A DNA stretch of 31,755 nucleotides from positions 1-31,755 of the forward strand of contig JABMQE010000106.1 of assembly GCA_013203415.1 (NCBI GenBank). The letters are read 5' to 3'. The notes beneath the pieces were generated by a model. The model had not been told where the DNA came from. It did not search any database and saw only the letters and a program-made list of their open reading frames with translations. The translations under genes were made by a program, and so were the position numbers. The stretch comes from Candidatus Falkowbacteria bacterium. GTDB taxonomy: Bacteria > Patescibacteriota > Patescibacteriia > UBA2591 > JABMQE01. Shown here one piece after another: positions 3,742-31,755 of this stretch; the first letter of the stretch is position 1, and each line of letters opens with the position of its first letter.

Positions 3742-4473
3742 ATGGAAGGAGAAATAAAGAAGGAGGAAATAAAAGAGGAAATCGAGGAAGATGAGGTTTT
3801 GTTAAAAGATGACAAGGGAAAGCAAAAAGGAAAAAAGAAACCTTATAGAGAAATAATTGTTGCTATTGTTGCTATCTTAGCTTTAGTCGTTTCAATAAAA
3901 AGTTGTAAGGTATCGGAAAGGGCATTAGATAGGGCTGATGACAGTAACGAGATTTCAAAAAGAATGTTAGAGGTCAGTCAGAGGCCTTATTTGGATTTAA
4001 CTTTTAAAAAGTTTGAAGAAAATGATTCTTATTTTTTGATAGATGAAAGGAATCAAGTAATTAAAATGAAAGCTGAATTAATAAATATCGGTAATACTCC
4101 TGCGAAGAAAATTTGTGTTGGTAATGTCTATTACAACAAAGGGAATCCTGACGACCCTGAAAACGATAGGGTTATGACAGTCAAGAGGCATGGTGAGATT
4201 ACTGATTTATTGCCAAATAAGTCTATAGTTATTAACGACATAGAGCTTCCTCCATGTTGCGGTAAAAGTTTTCAAGACTTTGCTGAAGAAGTCAAAGAAC
4301 CGGGTAAATTAGAATTTGTTGTTTTTTATAATTCTGATTTAAACTCTCTTAGTCGGCCCTATAACACCGTGATAAGTCCAGATTTAGATGATGGTGAATT
4401 TTTTTATAAGCTGACGATAGACAAAGGGATAGAAATAGAGGAGAACAGTGTTTGTGGCGTATTAGATAAATAA
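3742..4473 (+). CDS. Hypothetical single-pass membrane protein
   Basis: Open frame with a charged N-terminus, one TM (IIVAIVAILALVVSI) and a soluble domain. No family recognised. Start likely MEGEIKK. Confidence 0.7.
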   Translation: MEGEIKKEEIKEEIEEDEVLLKDDKGKQKGKKKPYREIIVAIVAILALVVSIKSCKVSERALDRADDSNEISKRMLEVSQRPYLDLTFKKFEENDSYFLIDERNQVIKMKAELINIGNTPAKKICVGNVYYNKGNPDDPENDRVMTVKRHGEITDLLPNKSIVINDIELPPCCGKSFQDFAEEVKEPGKLEFVVFYNSDLNSLSRPYNTVISPDLDDGEFFYKLTIDKGIEIEENSVCGVLDK

Positions 4474-4480
4474 TAAATCG

Positions 4481-5587
4481 ATGAAAATTGCATTAGTCCA
4501 TGACCACTTAAATCAATTAGGAGGGGCAGAGAAGGTGCTTTTTGCTTTGAATGATATTTATAAAGAAGCGCCGGTTTTTACTTTGATTCATGATAAGGAG
4601 AGGAGTAATGGGATTTTTGAGAGGTTGCCTATCCAAACATCTTTTATCCAAAAAATGCCTTTTGGGGCTACGCATCTACGATGGTATTTAAGTTTGATGC
4701 CGACTGCTTTTGAGTCGTTTGATTTGGGGGGGTTTGATGTGGTTTTGTCTTCGACATCAGCTTTTTCTAAGGGAGTAATTGTGGGGCCAAATACTTTGCA
4801 TATTTGCTATTGCCATACGCCAACAAGATATCTTTGGCAGGATACGCACGAGTATGTTAGGGACTTAAAACAGAATTTTTTGATTAAGAAATTTTTGCCT
4901 TTGCTTTTAACTCGGCTTAGGCAATGGGATTTTGAGGCGGGGCAAAGGCCGGATGTTATGATAGCTAATTCTAGGAATGTTCAAAACAGAATAAAAAAAT
5001 ACTATCAAAGAGACAGCACGGTAATTTATCCGCCGGTTGAGATAGAGAATTTTGGGATTGCCGACGATCTTTCGGATTATTATTTAGCTGGGGGACGATT
5101 AGTTTCTTATAAAAGATTTGATTTGGTGGTAAAAGCATTTACTAAGACAGGAATAAAGCTAAAGATTTTTGGAACAGGGCCGGAAGAGGACAAATTAAGA
5201 AAGACGGCAGGGGAGAATGTTGAGTTTTTAGGGCATGTTTCGCAAGAAAAGAAAGCAGAATTATATAGCAAGTGCTTGGCTTTTATCCATCCGCAGGAAG
5301 AGGATTTTGGCATAACGCCGGTAGAGGCAATGGCTTCTGGCCGGCCTGTTATTGCTTATAACCGGGGCGGAGCTTTGGAAACTGTGGTAGAGGGAGTGAG
5401 CGGGACTTTTTTTGATGAGCAGATTTGGGAGGCATTGGCGGATTTGATTATTAGATTTGATCCTTATATATATAATCCTTTGGAGATTAGAAAAAGGGCA
5501 GAAAGGTTTGGAGTGGAGCGGTTTAAGCAAGAGATGCAGGAGTTTGTGGCTTTGAGGTGGAATGAGTTTGCGAGATGCGAATTGTAA
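4481..5587 (+). CDS. Glycosyltransferase family 4 (GT-B)
   Basis: MKIALVHDHL..GGAE, YCHTPTRYLW, EEDFGITPVEAMASGRPVIA. Confidence 0.93.
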   Translation: MKIALVHDHLNQLGGAEKVLFALNDIYKEAPVFTLIHDKERSNGIFERLPIQTSFIQKMPFGATHLRWYLSLMPTAFESFDLGGFDVVLSSTSAFSKGVIVGPNTLHICYCHTPTRYLWQDTHEYVRDLKQNFLIKKFLPLLLTRLRQWDFEAGQRPDVMIANSRNVQNRIKKYYQRDSTVIYPPVEIENFGIADDLSDYYLAGGRLVSYKRFDLVVKAFTKTGIKLKIFGTGPEEDKLRKTAGENVEFLGHVSQEKKAELYSKCLAFIHPQEEDFGITPVEAMASGRPVIAYNRGGALETVVEGVSGTFFDEQIWEALADLIIRFDPYIYNPLEIRKRAERFGVERFKQEMQEFVALRWNEFARCEL

Positions 5588-5626
5588 GCCTTAAGCCTTA
5601 GGCCGTAAGCTATAAGCCGTAAGCGT
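5585..5626 (+). repeat. Heptamer array (TAAGCNN)6, left flank of the four-helix-bundle gene
   Basis: TAAGCCT TAAGCCT TAGGCCG TAAGCTA TAAGCCG TAAGCGT. The first TAA is the upstream stop codon. Confidence 0.9.
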
Positions 5627-5676
5627 TTTTTAGATTTTTTGTAATATATAGTTAAAATTGGGAAGGAGGTGATATA

Positions 5677-6030
5677 ATGGAAAAGTTTCGTTCTCTTAAG
5701 GTGTGGCAAAAATCGCATTACTTAGTTTTGGAAGTTTATAAAGTTACCAGAGACTATCCGGATTTTGAGAAATTTGGTTTGGTGTCTCAGATGAGAAGAT
5801 CTTCTGTTTCTGTTGTGGCTAATATTGTTGAAGGTTCGAAGAAAGTTAGTATAAAGGATAGAAAACATTTTCATGTGATAGCCGATGCTTCATTAGAGGA
5901 GTTAAAATATTATTTTATTTTAAGTTATAATTTAAAGTATATTGATTCTGAGGTTGGGAAGAAACTTATGGAATGTGCAAGGGAGGTAGGTCGAATGCTT
6001 TCAGGATTAACTAAGTCTTTAAGTAAATAA
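5677..6030 (+). CDS. Four helix bundle protein (23S rRNA IVS protein / bAvd-like family)
   Basis: F.SLKVWQKSH.L..EVYK...YP..EKFGLVSQMRRSSVS...NIVEG signature, 117 aa, strong SD AAGGAGGTGA at 5663-5672. Confidence 0.9.
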   Translation: MEKFRSLKVWQKSHYLVLEVYKVTRDYPDFEKFGLVSQMRRSSVSVVANIVEGSKKVSIKDRKHFHVIADASLEELKYYFILSYNLKYIDSEVGKKLMECAREVGRMLSGLTKSLSK

Positions 6031-6043
6031 TTTGTCGTAAGGT

Positions 6044-6076
6044 ATGCTTACAGCTTACGGCTTATAGCTTATGGCT
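6044..6076 (-). repeat. Heptamer array (NNGCTTA)n, right flank, inverted relative to 5585-5626
   Basis: ATGCTTA CAGCTTA CGGCTTA TAGCTTA TGGCT. 6053-6071 is the exact reverse complement of 5606-5624. It overlaps the next ATG at 6071. Confidence 0.9.
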
Positions 6077-7258
6077 CGCATTGGTATAGATATTCGTTCT
6101 CTTCTTGAGGGGTATCGGACAGGGATAGGAGAGTATACGTATAATTTAATTAATGAGTTTTTGAAAAAGGATACTGAGAGTGAGTATCATCTTTTTTATA
6201 ATCAAAGGCATTCTATAAAAAAAGACCCGCCTAAGTTTGAGAGTCCTAATGTTAAAGTTTTTGATTATAAATATCCCAACAGGTGGTTTAATTTGTCGCT
6301 TAGATATTTTGGATGGCCGAGGTTGGAGAAGTTGGATGGTGAGCCTGATGTTATGTGGTATCCAAATTTTGGATTTATAAATTTTAATATTAAGGTACCG
6401 TATGTTTTAACTGTTCACGATTTGTCGTTTGAGAGGTATCCGGAGTTTTTTACCCGTCCTCATCGGTTATGGCATAAGCTTATAAATTGTCGGCGTATGG
6501 CTAGAGGCGCAACAAAGGTTATAGCTGTTTCTGAAAATACTAAGCGGGATTTGATTGAGTTGTATGGGGTGGATGAGGGAAAGATTGAGGTTGTATATGA
6601 AGGAATTGATGCGAAACTACGAAAAGAATGCGAAACTACCCGCCTCGCCAAGACGAGCTTGGCTCGTCGAGGCTGGGCGAAAATGCGAAAGGTTCAGGAA
6701 AAGTATAATTTGCCGGAGAAGTTTGTTTTGTTTTTAGGAACGATTGAGCCGAGGAAGAATATTGAGGCAGTCATTAGGGCTTTCGATAAGGCGAGTTACG
6801 AGTTCCCGAGTTACGAGTTACTATTAGCCGGTGGTAAGGGTTGGAATAATAAGGGGATTTATGAGATTCATAATAAATTGAAAAATAAAGACAAGATTCG
6901 GTTTTTAGGTTATGTAGAGCACGAGGAAAAGCCGGCTTTGTATAAATTGGCATCTTTGTTTGTTTTTCCGTCTATTTATGAAGGATTTGGTTTGCCGCCT
7001 TTGGAAGCAATGGCTTGCGGGACGCCGGTGATAACGAGTAATGCTTCGTCTTTACCCGAAGTGGTAGGGGATGCTGGTTTAATGGTTAATCCTTATAATA
7101 TAAACGAATTGGTGGAGGCGATGAAGGTGATGTTGTCTGACGCGGAGTTGAGACAGAGGTTTATAGAAAAGGGACTTGCGAGAGCGCAGAAATTTACATG
7201 GGAGAGGTGTGCGGAGAAGACGTTGGAATTAATACAGCAGATTAAAGCAGATTTTTAA
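6071..7258 (+). CDS. Glycosyltransferase family 4 (mannosyltransferase-like)
   Basis: [44 protein letters not shown]. Contains repeat-derived in-frame segments. Confidence 0.93.
6609..6694 (+). repeat. CGAAACTA-type dispersed repeat (copy 1) with nested 39-bp hairpin (6639-6677), in frame in CDS
   Basis: ATGCGAAACTACGAAAAGAATGCGAAACTA[CCCGCCTCGCCAAGACGAGCTTGGCTCGTCGAGGCTGGG]CGAAAATGCGAAAGGTT. Confidence 0.85.
6792..6820 (+). repeat. Heptamer array CGAGTT(A/C) x4 within CDS
   Basis: CGAGTTA CGAGTTC C CGAGTTA CGAGTTA, encoding SYEFPSYEL. Confidence 0.65.
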
Positions 7259-7267
7259 CGGATTTTT

Positions 7268-8392
7268 ATGAAGATAGTAATAGATGCCCGGCTTTATGGG
7301 GCAAGCAAAAATAGAGGTTTAGGCCGGTATGTGGAGCAACTGGTGAAGAACCTAGAAAAAGTGGACCATGAGAATGACTACACTGTTTTGTTGCGGCAGG
7401 AAAATTTTGATGATTATGAGCCGCAGAATTCGAGGTTTAAGAAAGTTTTGGCTGATTATCCTTGGTATTCATTTGCCGAACAGATTTTACTGCCTTGGAA
7501 ATTATGGCGGATGGATTGTGATTTAGTGCATTTTCCGCATTTTAATGTGCCAATTTTTTGCCCTCGTAAATTTGTGGTTACGATTCATGATTTAATAATG
7601 TATAAATTTCCAAACGATAAGGCGACGACTAGGAATAAGTTTTTTTATAGAACAAAATATTGGTTGCATAAATTTGTGATTAAGTCGGCGATTAGAAAGG
7701 CAAAGAAGATTATTGTTGATTGCGAGTTTACGAAACGGGATGTTATTCGAGAATTTGGAGTTGGCGAGGACAGGGTTAGAGTTATTTATTTGGGATTTGA
7801 GGTGGGTGACAAAGGCATGAGGGATGCGAATTACACGAATGTTTTAGAGAAGTATGGAATTAAGGGACAATATTTGTTGTATGTTGGGAGTGCGTATCCG
7901 CATAAGAATTTGGAAACGCTTATTAATGCTTTTGATAGGGTTAAAAAAGAGCATGGGGATTTACAATTGGTTTTGGTTGGTCGGCGGGATTATTTTTATG
8001 AGAAACTAAAAACTAGAGATGTGGTATTTACCGGTGACGTGTCGAATGGGGATTTAGCGGCGTTATATCGAAATGCATTGATTTACGTGTTTCCGTCTTT
8101 ATACGAGGGATTTGGGTTGCCAGGGCTGGAGGCGATGAGTTATGGGGTGCCGGTGATTGCGGCTAGGGCATCATGCTTGCCGGAGATTTACGGGGAGGCG
8201 GCTTTGTATTTTGAGCCAAAGAGTGGAAGTGATTTAGCAGGAAAGATCGGGCAAATTTTAGAGAGCAGTGATTTACGAGAGAATTTGGCGGCGCGAGGTT
8301 ACGATCAGATAAAAAAATATAGTTGGGAGAGTTGTGCTGTGCAAACGAAGGAAACTTATGCACATTTACGTAAGGATGAGGGTGGGGTATAA
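7268..8392 (+). CDS. Glycosyltransferase family 4
   Basis: MKIVIDAR, HFPHFNVP, TIHDL, YVGSAYPHKN, YEGFGLPGLEAMSYGVPVI. Confidence 0.93.
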   Translation: MKIVIDARLYGASKNRGLGRYVEQLVKNLEKVDHENDYTVLLRQENFDDYEPQNSRFKKVLADYPWYSFAEQILLPWKLWRMDCDLVHFPHFNVPIFCPRKFVVTIHDLIMYKFPNDKATTRNKFFYRTKYWLHKFVIKSAIRKAKKIIVDCEFTKRDVIREFGVGEDRVRVIYLGFEVGDKGMRDANYTNVLEKYGIKGQYLLYVGSAYPHKNLETLINAFDRVKKEHGDLQLVLVGRRDYFYEKLKTRDVVFTGDVSNGDLAALYRNALIYVFPSLYEGFGLPGLEAMSYGVPVIAARASCLPEIYGEAALYFEPKSGSDLAGKIGQILESSDLRENLAARGYDQIKKYSWESCAVQTKETYAHLRKDEGGV

Positions 8393-11398: not shown

Positions 11399-11400
11399 TA

Positions 11401-11473
11401 ATGCGAAACTACGAAAATAATGCGAAACTACGAAAATGCGAAAGGTTGGTTAATGCGAATTTGTGAAAGGTTG
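11401..11473 (+). repeat. CGAAACTA-type dispersed repeat (copy 2, uninterrupted)
   Basis: ATGCGAAACTACGAAAATAATGCGAAACTACGAAAATGCGAAAGGTT plus a degenerate tail. Confidence 0.85.
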
Positions 11474-14198: not shown

Positions 14199-14251
14199 AA
14201 ATAGATGCCACTATAGTGGCATCTACAATGCCATCATGATGGCATCTATTT
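14199..14251. repeat. Tandem perfect palindromes ATGCCA-N6-TGGCAT x2
   Basis: TAGATGCCACTATAGTGGCATCTA (14202-25) and ATGCCATCATGATGGCAT (14228-45). Confidence 0.85.
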
Positions 14252-14560
14252 ATTTTCTTTGGTATCTTCTTGGGCTAATCGTTCATCAGGTGAATAAAGG
14301 CGGTTTTTTATGCGCCAACGGCTGGCGAACTGGCCGATTCCTTTTTTATGAAACTGGCCAGACCGGCGGGCTGATTTTTGGGACCAGGAAATTAAATCCT
14401 CAAAATTTATTTTGTAGCGTTCGCGGACTACAATATAACGAAGTTCTTTGCTGGTTATTGCTTTTCTAATAGTGGCAGTGGAAACCCCAAATAGTTTGGC
14501 TGCTTCGGATACTGATACTCTGATTGGTTTAATTTCTGGAGTCATTGGTGTATTTAACAT
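14246..14560 (-). CDS. Excisionase-like helix-turn-helix DNA-binding protein (HTH_17-like)
   Basis: VSVSEAAKLFGVSTATIRKAITSKELRY....RYKINFEDL. Confidence 0.85.
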   Translation of the reverse strand: MLNTPMTPEIKPIRVSVSEAAKLFGVSTATIRKAITSKELRYIVVRERYKINFEDLISWSQKSARRSGQFHKKGIGQFASRWRIKNRLYSPDERLAQEDTKENK

Positions 14561-14597: not shown

Positions 14598-14649
14598 GTT
14601 GATTTTAACATAAAAGTGTTTAGTCGTCAAAAAGTTATGCACAGAGGTT

Positions 14650-14698
14650 GACAATTAACAATTAACAATTAACAATTGACAATTGATAATTGACAATT
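14650..14698 (+). repeat. Heptamer array (G/A)A(C/T)AATT x7
   Basis: GACAATT AACAATT AACAATT AACAATT GACAATT GATAATT GACAATT. Confidence 0.9.
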
Positions 14699-14700
14699 AG

Positions 14701-14791: not shown

Positions 14792-15334
14792 ATGAAATTG
14801 AAATTTTTAGAGAAACGTTTAATACGCAAAATTCAGAATGGGGATGCAGAAGCATTTGCCCAGGTTTATGACGCGTATATTGATAAGATCTATAAGTTTA
14901 TCTATTATAAGGTAAGAACGCAAGAACAGGCCGAGGATTTGACAAGCCAAGTTTTTACAAAACTTCTGGAATATATTCTTTCTGGCAAGGAGATAGAAAA
15001 CCTTCAGGCATTAATTTATCGAGTAGCTAGAAATCAAGTTGTTGATCATTATCGAAGTTCGAAAGTGGAAGTGCCAATCGAATTTGCAGTGCGGGAAACA
15101 GCAGTATCTTTCGAGGCAGAAATAGGCAAAAAAGAAGGATTGATGGAGATTGAAAAAGCACTTAGGAAATTAAAAGGGGAAATTAAAGAAGCAATGCTTC
15201 TTAGATATATAGATGATTATTCGATACGGGAAGTAGCAGAGATTTTAGGAAAAAGCGAGGGTTCGGTAAGAGTGATGATTCACCGGGCGAGGAAAGAGAT
15301 AAAAGGCAAGTTACTAAACAAGGATAAGGGCTAG
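14792..15334 (+). CDS. ECF-type RNA polymerase sigma factor
   Basis: GDAEAF..VY..Y.DKIY.FIY, AEDLTSQVF, IYRVARN..VDHYR, and region 4 YSIREVAEILGKSEGSVRVMIHRAR. Confidence 0.93.
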   Translation: MKLKFLEKRLIRKIQNGDAEAFAQVYDAYIDKIYKFIYYKVRTQEQAEDLTSQVFTKLLEYILSGKEIENLQALIYRVARNQVVDHYRSSKVEVPIEFAVRETAVSFEAEIGKKEGLMEIEKALRKLKGEIKEAMLLRYIDDYSIREVAEILGKSEGSVRVMIHRARKEIKGKLLNKDKG

Positions 15335-26017: not shown

Positions 26018-26064
26018 ATACGAAACTACGAAAAGCATGCGAAACTACGAACATGCGAAAGGTT
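26018..26064 (+). repeat. CGAAACTA-type dispersed repeat (copy 3)
   Basis: ATACGAAACTACGAAAAGCATGCGAAACTACGAACATGCGAAAGGTT. Confidence 0.85.
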
Positions 26065-30045: not shown

Positions 30046-31174
<1,129 letters not shown>

Positions 31175-31234: not shown

Positions 31235-31755
31235 AAAATAATGATGCTAAGCGGAGATAGGAGTTTGGTCGCTGGAAAACGCGGAGCGTTTTATTATACT
31301 TTGGAGGAGTTGAGTAAGTATTGCGAGCGGATTGATGTGCTATGTCCATTGGAACAAGAAAACAAGAAAACAAGAAAACAAGAAAACAAGTTTTTTGATA
31401 ATGTTTATTTACATCCTGGTGAAGAGAGTAAGATTAGACAGATATTTTATTTAGCGAAAAAGGGAATAGAGCTTTGGGACAAGGAAAAGCATGATATTGT
31501 TTTGATTCATGAGTATCCGCCTTTTTATAATTCTTTAGGAGCAAGATTATTGTCTAAAAAGATTAATGCGAAATTTGTAGTGGAAATTCATCATATAATT
31601 GGTTATCCAAAGCAAGCGGACTTAAAAGAGAAGTTTCATTTTTTGTTGTCTAAGATTTTTATTCCAAGAGATTGCAGAAGATTTGAGGCAGTTCGGATTG
31701 TTAATAAAAAACAAGTGCCAGAGTTTTTAAGAGGTTTGGGAGTAAGCGAGGCAAA
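31232..31755 (+). CDS. Glycosyltransferase family 4, N-terminal part (runs off the window)
   Basis: Open frame MKIMMLSGDRSLVAGKRGAFYYTLEELSKY...HEYPPFYN...VEIHHIIGYP to the window end; GT-B N-terminal character. Confidence 0.8.
   Translation, partial: MKIMMLSGDRSLVAGKRGAFYYTLEELSKYCERIDVLCPLEQENKKTRKQENKFFDNVYLHPGEESKIRQIFYLAKKGIELWDKEKHDIVLIHEYPPFYNSLGARLLSKKINAKFVVEIHHIIGYPKQADLKEKFHFLLSKIFIPRDCRRFEAVRIVNKKQVPEFLRGLGVSEA
31353..31390 (+). repeat. Perfect octamer array (AACAAGAA)4.75 within CDS
   Basis: Encodes EQENKKTRKQENK. Confidence 0.95.

Follow-up and report, generated by a model that had tools for sequence, protein, structure and literature searches.

The 31,755-nucleotide contig JABMQE010000106.1 of Candidatus Falkowbacteria bacterium (assembly GCA_013203415.1), which as a whole is referred to here as the window, carries at positions 5585-6076 a segment that is probably a single-gene cassette of the intervening sequence (IVS) type. 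The cassette appears to have been inserted co-directionally at the junction between two genes for GT4-family glycosyltransferases, with its arms supplying the stop codon of the upstream neighbor and the start codon of the downstream neighbor. Each arm is a tandem array of heptamers, the two arrays are inverted relative to one another, and the gene between them encodes a four-helix-bundle protein of the PF05635 family. Comparison of loci indicates that the gene and its arms are a discrete unit that is copied and replaced whole, and the cassette is very likely mobile or exchangeable. The window copy is a member of a class of array-armed single-gene cassettes, which is recognized by a small PF05635 or PF13366 cargo gene between inverted short-period arrays, a co-oriented location at an operon junction and the copying or replacement of the unit as a whole in relatives.

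To our knowledge, the PF05635/TIGR02436 proteins make up a very large family for which structures have been solved and no function is known, and intergenic heptamer arrays have been catalogued for decades, as the STRR of cyanobacteria, as sites in Geobacter and as a general excess of 7-nt repeats, without a mechanism. A literature search found no publication that states a general link between PF05635 genes and flanking heptamer arrays. If the two are joined in a mobile, IVS-like cassette, each gains a testable role, the candidates being the array as the RNA or DNA ligand of the protein, processing by RNase III at the arms, and copying or replacement at operon junctions.

The source genome (G000) is represented by a 1.03-Mb assembly of 142 contigs, with 40.5% guanine plus cytosine (GC) and 94.8% completeness. 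Its 23S rRNA gene is missing from the assembly. G001 belongs to a sister genus; L-numbers denote individual loci and C-numbers contigs.

Layout and cargo of the cassette

Table 1. Coordinates of the cassette and its neighbors in the window, and of one junction that holds different cargo in two species.
Feature	Position	Strand	Basis
Upstream host gene, GT4-family glycosyltransferase	4481-5587	+	Pfam Glycos_transf_1, E 6.6e-31
Left arm, six tandem TAAGCNN heptamers	5585-5626	+	Tandem Repeats Finder and direct reading
Inverted-repeat core, left side (partner 6053-6075)	5602-5624	+	23 nt, 96% complementary
Shine-Dalgarno sequence AAGGAGGTGA, 4 nt ahead of the cassette ATG	5663-5672	+	Sequence
Cargo gene, 117-aa four-helix-bundle protein (PF05635/TIGR02436, Avd-like) with NIxEG motif	5677-6030	+	Pfam, NCBIfam
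Right arm, about four GCTTANN heptamers, reverse complement of the left unit	6044-6076	+	Tandem Repeats Finder, inverted-repeat search
Downstream host gene, GT4-family glycosyltransferase	6071-7258	+	Pfam Glycos_transf_1, E 1.3e-42
Different-cargo junction, PF05635 in one species and GxxExxY in the other, same genus	L287 1053-1427 vs L286 1875-2332	- (L287)	

The features of the locus are collected in Table 1. Direct reading of the left array gave the units TAAGCCT, TAAGCCT, TAGGCCG, TAAGCTA, TAAGCCG and TAAGCGT, and of the right array GCTTACA, GCTTACG, GCTTATA and GCTTATG. Tandem Repeats Finder reported arrays of period 7 at 5584-5624 (5.9 copies) and 6046-6071 (3.7 copies), so that the gene does lie, as an earlier note on this DNA had described, between (TAAGCNN)6 and its reverse-complement array. 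The arms form a 31-nt inverted repeat (5587-5617 with 6046-6076) that is 84% complementary. There is one mismatch in the core, which accounts for the 19-bp exact inverted match, 5606-5624 with 6053-6071, given in the same note. Runs of more than two TA[AG]GCNN units (six and four) were found only at the cassette in the 1.03-Mb assembly; all other matches were exactly two units long.

The cassette fits tightly between its neighbors. The TAA stop codon of the upstream glycosyltransferase gene (5585-5587) is the first three bases of the left array, while the ATG of the downstream gene (6071) and its second codon lie inside the right arm, the ATG falling within GCTTATGGCT and in the last heptamer. 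Both overlaps had been pointed out previously and are borne out by the sequence and the coordinates of the open reading frames (ORFs). The downstream protein begins M-A-R-I, the orthologue in G001 M-R-I. The left array is separated from the cassette ATG by an A/T-rich spacer of 50 nt that ends in AAGGAGGTGA, and the cassette ORF from the right array by 13 nt. No Shine-Dalgarno motif precedes the neighboring ATGs at 4481, 6071 and 7268, which agrees with the earlier statement that the cassette gene alone has a full one. Scans of 4400-7400 for promoters and terminators returned as many sites as expected from shuffled sequence, and a weak promoter-like site at 5629-5658 was the only one inside the cassette. 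There was no Rfam match in 5300-6400 at E<=1. When 5575-6090 was folded as RNA, z was -3.1 and the centroid structure retained only the arm stem.

The cargo gene belongs to the PF05635/TIGR02436 four-helix-bundle family, since the curated cut-offs were passed over the full domain. The match to PF05635 had an E-value of 1.5e-34 and 118.8 bits (cut-off 33.8) and covered profile positions 2-106 of 106, while the match to TIGR02436, the family to which the gene had originally been assigned, had an E-value of 1.7e-31 and 108.7 bits (cut-off 24). The suggested relation to Avd was recovered as a weaker match to PF22296 bAvd (E 1.5e-11). PDB entry 2gsc, which holds five chains of the protein, was matched with an E-value of 2.9e-13. 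The conserved motif R..S..NIxEG that has been recorded for the family (PMC3936711) is present in the window protein. Where the ratio of nonsynonymous to synonymous rates (dN/dS) was measurable, that is, among close relatives, it was 0.22-0.27, indicating purifying selection on the cargo gene. The nearest homologues of the window protein, which were found in metagenome-assembled genomes of Falkowbacteria and Magasanikbacteria (Patescibacteria), are more distant; the proportion of differing synonymous sites (pS) was 0.83-0.91, which is saturation, and that of nonsynonymous sites (pN) 0.23-0.27.

Copying, replacement and recurrence of the unit

The limits of the unit were defined by two pairs of recent copies. 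In genome G003, the cassettes at L095 and L096 share 98.5% identity across 458 bp; those at L103 and L104 of genome G017 share 98.8% across 434 bp. The surroundings are unrelated within each pair, and the identity ends at the outer ends of the arms. The copy at L096 includes the sequence TTTCTGA. At L095 these bases belong to the host gene and form its conserved end (NLRF-stop; ATTCTAA in a congener), which identifies L095 as the donor and shows that the copy carried 6-7 host bases along.

The two G003 junctions showed that one cassette can stand in the place of another. In the congener G027, the L096 junction has flanks that are 86-94% identical and contains a different PF05635 cassette, the protein of which is highly divergent and the DNA of which does not align. 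The breakpoints of this replacement (429/888) are <=5 nt from the ends of the duplicated unit (435/892). The L095 junction of G027 is occupied by an array-armed cassette with a GxxExxY gene of the PD-(D/E)XK type (PF13366, E 3.7e-31); the coordinates of a junction of this kind are listed in Table 1. Absence at an orthologous junction was also found. In G001, the orthologues of the two GT4 genes are adjacent (69% identity upstream and 68% downstream) and there is no PF05635 gene between them. At the G001 junction (L053 2690-3400, on G001:C70), the upstream stop codon is immediately followed by an (ATAATTA)x3 array; roughly 300 nt that are non-coding and an ORF for a 93-aa hydrophobic protein on the opposite strand are also present, and this DNA may be what is left of a different insert.

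The source genome contains 16 matches to PF05635. Inverted arrays flank almost all of them, mostly with period 7 and in a few cases with period 8 or 12, and nearly all of the roughly 14 paralogues have a heptamer of their own (GTAACTC, ACTAGTC, CATTGAG, GTTATAN, ATAATTG, GAAGATG, AAGTTTT and others). Control genes were taken from a crude gene call. Flanks with strong complementarity (Smith-Waterman score >30) belonged to 8 of 13 PF05635 genes, 3 of 3 GxxExxY genes and 13 of 857 other genes (Fisher p 3e-11), and the enrichment of arrays at PF05635 and GxxExxY genes over other genes was put at about 100-fold. The other high-scoring bracketed genes (NusG, L5, large ORFs) were rejected as cassettes, as they lie between two separate junction hairpins. 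Five PF13366 (GxxExxY) genes are present, and all four of the full-length ones are array-armed.

Period 7 is the commonest array period in this genome (369 arrays). The 57 inverted array pairs fall into two groups by the gap between them, one with gaps of 370-550 bp that contain a PF05635 gene and one with gaps of 1-80 bp, which are gene-less hairpins scattered at other gene junctions. Each of the 23 clear gene-less heptamer hairpins has a unit that differs by at most one mismatch from that of some gene-bearing cassette in this genome; the match is exact in 61% of them, against 23% under the null. The elements of the ACTAGTC family have a common inner GGG/CCC stem and loop motif and occur in either orientation, and are therefore copies of whole elements rather than arrays that grew independently.

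The earlier note had proposed that homologues be examined for inverted flanking arrays, and these proved to be enriched in the order as well as in the source genome and in cyanobacteria. PF05635 was found in 31 of 41 genomes of the order. The flanks of 101 usable PF05635 genes from about 35 genomes were compared with mismatched partners; a local alignment score was used, because duplex energies calculated on 200-nt flanks were inflated by long interior loops (about -52 kcal/mol in the controls) and were dropped. Inverted complementarity exceeded the 95th percentile of the controls for 76 of the 101 genes (about 5 expected) and the 99th percentile for 31, compared with 10 and 3, respectively, for flanks in direct orientation.

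The cargo gene nearly always points the same way as its host operon. Among 83 cassettes with callable neighbors, both neighbors were co-oriented with the cargo gene in 70 and both opposed in 1, with a median gap of 57 nt between the upstream stop codon and the cassette ATG. Together with the chance-level numbers of promoter and terminator sites, this suggests that the cargo depends on read-through transcription from the host operon and that the cassette gene is probably promoter-less.

The arms follow the protein. At 58-71% identity, the homologues nearest to the window protein occur in other gene contexts and have kept a heptamer with the TAAG core. Over all protein pairs, the unit was shared in 35-46% of those that were at least 50% identical and in 2% of those <40% identical. 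Retention of the heptamer core despite saturation of the synonymous sites indicates that the sequence of the arms, and not their complementarity alone, is inherited together with the protein clade and is probably constrained with it.

Several observations extend the layout beyond the order, 1) on cyanobacterial plasmids, a PF05635 gene flanked by inverted heptamers separates cas10 from cmr3, or cas6 from cas4, 2) 8 of the 11 PF05635 paralogues encoded on Sphaerospermopsis and Calothrix chromosomes have the layout, each with its own heptamer, and 3) a clade of 77 loci from >12 phyla encodes proteins that are 68-95% identical to the protein of a Nostoc plasmid. The hosts of this clade include Cyanobacteria, Nitrospirota, Acidobacteriota, Verrucomicrobiota, Ignavibacteriota, Chloroflexi, Planctomycetota, Bacillota and Deinococcota, among others. 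Its upstream arms consist of related heptamers with a CAGRA core, most commonly TCAGGAG; a downstream run was detectable at 29 of 76 loci and was mostly the complement CTCCTGA, and period 7 was the best in 71 of 75 scored flanks. Since all members share one heptamer, the mismatched-partner control is uninformative for this clade; the sharing is itself the result. Proteins that are 68-82% identical to the Nostoc protein are found in >12 phyla, which is an unusually high degree of conservation for 120 aa with no assigned function and implies that the gene has spread widely by horizontal transfer.

A survey of cas genes recorded 23S_rRNA_IVP genes inside cas loci (PMC3936711). The interpretation of these genes as cassette cargo accounts for spurious associations with CRISPR-cas and other operons. 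It also calls for caution in annotation, as an insert can supply the start and stop codons of neighboring genes.

Copy number and array density were compared in 21 genomes of the order. The number of PF05635 copies per Mb correlated with the number of arrays of period 7-8 per 100 kb (rho 0.70, p 4e-4) and not with that of arrays of period 9-11 (rho 0.12). The correlation is not explained by GC content, for which rho with the density of period 7-8 arrays was 0.10.

Related systems, proposed mechanism and alternatives

ORF-bearing IVSs occur in 23S rRNA, in helix 45 of Coxiella burnetii and in Leptospira, and mobility, present or past, has been proposed for them. As in the window cassette, the cargo is a PF05635 protein, and the ORF lies inside terminal inverted repeats that form a long stem; the cassette thus has the architecture of these IVSs. 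The likeness to Coxiella includes the heptamers. Its IVS has a 28-bp stem in which GACAGAT is repeated 2-3 times ahead of the S23p ORF, the first of these repeats is where RNase III cleaves, and strains differ in the number of heptamers (PMC4990558). The location is different, since the rRNA IVS resides in a helix of rRNA, whereas the window cassette lies between two protein-coding GT4 genes of an operon and, unlike the rRNA IVS, has arms that overlap a stop and a start codon. Moreover, the window ORF is intact, has a strong Shine-Dalgarno sequence and is under purifying selection, while the one in Coxiella is regarded as being in decay. Gene-less hairpin derivatives and an alternative cargo, GxxExxY, further distinguish the class of the window cassette from the rRNA IVS.

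Similar tandem arrays have been described in other bacteria. The STRR of cyanobacteria are short tandemly repeated heptamers. In the genome paper on Geobacter metallireducens, paired tandem heptanucleotides MTYCTGA were listed as putative regulator sites and no gene was named (PMC2700814). This consensus is complementary to TCAGRAK, the arm sequence of the PF05635 clade that spans >12 phyla. Like the cassette arms, the STRR and Geobacter sites are intergenic tandem 7-nt arrays, often in inverted pairs; their descriptions name no gene family, whereas the cassette arrays are tied to PF05635 (and PF13366).

The combination of a gene-bearing copy with many short, intergenic, gene-less hairpins that have its ends is reminiscent of miniature inverted-repeat transposable elements (MITEs) and of repetitive extragenic palindrome hairpins (REPINs) with their tyrosine transposases (RAYTs), and so is the finding that gene-less copies within one cassette family are alike over their full length, loop included, and occur in both orientations. 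However, the cargo gene encodes no transposase and no Y1 RAYT, and the ends are tandem 7-nt arrays that differ by family, with no target-site duplication seen. With inverted ends alone, the cassettes do not qualify as DNA transposons or MITEs. Integron cassettes resemble them in being compact, single-gene units, probably promoter-less, co-oriented with an external promoter, inserted with no slack and swappable. The differences are that there is no integrase, attI or cassette array, that the repeats are on both sides of the gene rather than in one attC, and that the sites are ordinary operon junctions across the genome.

Avd is the accessory protein of diversity-generating retroelements (DGRs) that binds nucleic acid and the reverse transcriptase. 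The PF22296 match indicates a homologous four-helix-bundle fold, and the cargo protein also matched the Avd model NF033474 with 42 bits, so that the gene might be taken for a DGR accessory gene. This explanation was rejected and is given next to no weight, for the NF033474 score is below the 80-bit cut-off for an equivalog, a search of the 94.8%-complete genome gave no RVT_1 reverse transcriptase, the cassette has no template or variable repeats, and the neighbors are glycosyltransferases.

The mechanism proposed for the IVS-type cassette is modeled on the rRNA IVS. The cassette would be transcribed within the glycosyltransferase operon and its arms would pair into a stem of 23-31 bp. The base of the stem contains the upstream stop and the downstream start, so pairing would join those codons, placing the one next to the other. 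RNase III, for which there is a gene in the source genome (G000:C84), would cut the arm stem as it does in the Coxiella 23S IVS, releasing the cassette mRNA and thereby making the insertion tolerable. Transcription with the operon, pairing of the arms and cutting of the stem are, taken together, an evenly balanced proposition. As a matter of speculation, the ribosome terminating at the upstream stop might open the right arm, and translational coupling could in this way survive an insert of 490 nt.

Other steps are more tentative. Because Avd binds nucleic acid and reverse transcriptase, binding of RNA or DNA is a reasonable guess for the PF05635 protein, which may recognize its own heptamer array, although we would put this at somewhat below an even chance. 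Spread and replacement may proceed by recombination or copying between like arms, with empty hairpins being filled, rather than by a transposase, a route favored by the lack of both a target duplication and a dedicated enzyme for PF05635 cassettes and judged possible, if a little short of even. Repair triggered by the nuclease is an alternative route of movement for the GxxExxY cassettes. It is more doubtful that each PF05635 clade recognizes its own heptamer and that this recognition drives both the processing of the stem and homing into gene-less hairpins with like arms. If it does, much of the excess of STRR-type heptamer repeats in bacteria would stem from PF05635 and GxxExxY cassettes, and the rRNA IVS would be merely one landing site.

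Several results weigh against the reading of the segment as a mobile, RNA-processed cassette. Arm mismatches in the 101-gene set comprised 36 G·U and 31 A·C pairs on the sense strand and 113 transversions, and this lack of a G·U excess gives no support for selection on a stem in the sense RNA. No target duplication was present at the ends of the two recent copies, and no mobility enzyme was found for PF05635 cassettes. The TAAGCNN family is a singleton in the assembly, with neither a second copy nor a gene-less hairpin. The junction in G001 contains other DNA and so does not count as a clean empty site. The mobile or excisable unit that the earlier note envisaged finds support in copying, in replacement and in absence from an orthologous junction, but the empty-site allele that it suggested looking for in related genomes or reads was not seen in the source metagenomes; contigs with the organism from two runs held the filled form only, with no joint that skips the cassette, which at a coverage of about 5-6x is weak evidence. 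The armed fractions of 60-75% come from chosen lineages and a comparatively loose score and may hold only for these lineages, and the correlation with copy number is overstated, and indicative only, because related genomes are not independent.

An alternative is that the inverted arrays act purely in DNA, as recombination or transposition ends or as cruciform targets, with pairing in the mRNA an irrelevant by-product. The arrays would then serve an enzyme of the host or one that acts in trans, such as the PD-(D/E)XK nucleases of the sister GxxExxY cassettes. The absence of a sense-strand G·U bias is in keeping with such an element, and so are the coincidence of the breakpoints of duplicated and replaced units with the ends of the arms, the arming of the full-length PF13366 genes in the source genome and the exchange of a PF05635 for a GxxExxY cassette at one junction. 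The 70:1 co-orientation, however, would not be expected unless expression of the cargo is selected, and the prototype, the rRNA IVS, is processed at the level of RNA at its heptamers (PMC4990558). Target duplications were not seen and nuclease activity on such arrays is not known, and an element acting solely in DNA is considered unlikely. The co-variation of protein clade and heptamer, the purifying selection on the cargo gene and the gene-less hairpins that carry the heptamers of a gene-bearing copy in the same genome could also be explained if PF05635 were an ordinary, resident chromosomal regulator that binds nucleic acid, with the arrays as its operators or RNA targets and the unit immobile; the Geobacter heptanucleotide pairs were indeed annotated as putative sites of a global regulator (PMC2700814). 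An immobile unit is difficult to reconcile with near-identical copies in unrelated contexts, with different cassettes at one junction in congeners, with a syntenic G001 junction that has no cassette and with proteins of 68-82% identity that have the same heptamer in >12 phyla, and the window heptamer has no other site in its genome. A resident regulator is therefore quite improbable.

It is still less probable that the arrays are a by-product of mutation, formed by polymerase slippage and homogenized as hairpins by template switching, with the PF05635 gene present incidentally. Heptanucleotide repeats have been reported to be the commonest class of 5-11-nt repeats in many prokaryotes (cited in PMC4679880), the source genome is rich in period-7 arrays and the heptamer copy number of Coxiella differs among strains, all of which would be accommodated by slippage. 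It would not produce the enrichment at PF05635 and GxxExxY genes, the restriction of the pattern to the inverted orientation, the retention of a heptamer with its protein clade across phyla at saturated synonymous divergence, or an array density that follows gene copy number for periods 7-8 only. The IVS-type cassette remains the preferred explanation of the segment.

Further arrays in the window and the source genome

Dispersed ATGCGAAACTACGAAA(A) repeats are present in the window at 11399-11443 and 26019-26060. They belong to a family that is also found in the inverted arms, with a period of about 8 nt, around a GxxExxY (PF13366) gene at G000:C111:997-1338, and they have the appearance of solo arms, or of gene-less relatives, of this cassette type. 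Two small ORFs without a Pfam match, of 177 aa (L271 231-764, G000:C24) and 89 aa (L272 314-583, G000:C89), lie between inverted heptamer arrays and may be further types of cargo or ordinary genes between two junction hairpins.

The tmRNA gene of the source genome (RF00023, 102.6 bits, minus strand, L273 159-561) is located inside inverted arrays of AAGTTTT-type heptamers (L273 117-616, equivalent to G000:C68:616-1115), the unit of which is that of the PF05635 cassette on contig C83. A 20-nt palindrome, CCTGCCTGCCGG(C/T)AGGCAGG, was found within the heptamer arms of two PF05635 cassettes and also beside the L5 gene (G000:C121 at about 4633-5408, C86 at about 6088-6130 and C135 at about 1900-2640); it seems to be a dispersed element in its own right, very small and nested within the arrays.

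At 14648-14699, the window has seven heptamers (ACAATTA/ACAATTG) for which no inverted partner was found nearby. They lie in a divergent intergenic region between a helix-turn-helix gene (14246-14560, minus strand) and the gene for an extracytoplasmic function (ECF) sigma factor (14792-15334). Finally, a perfect (AATGGAA)x5 tract at 30172-30206 and a perfect (AACAAGAA)x4.8 tract at 31353-31390 are located within the 5' parts of two adjacent GT4 ORFs, where these short-period arrays are translated.

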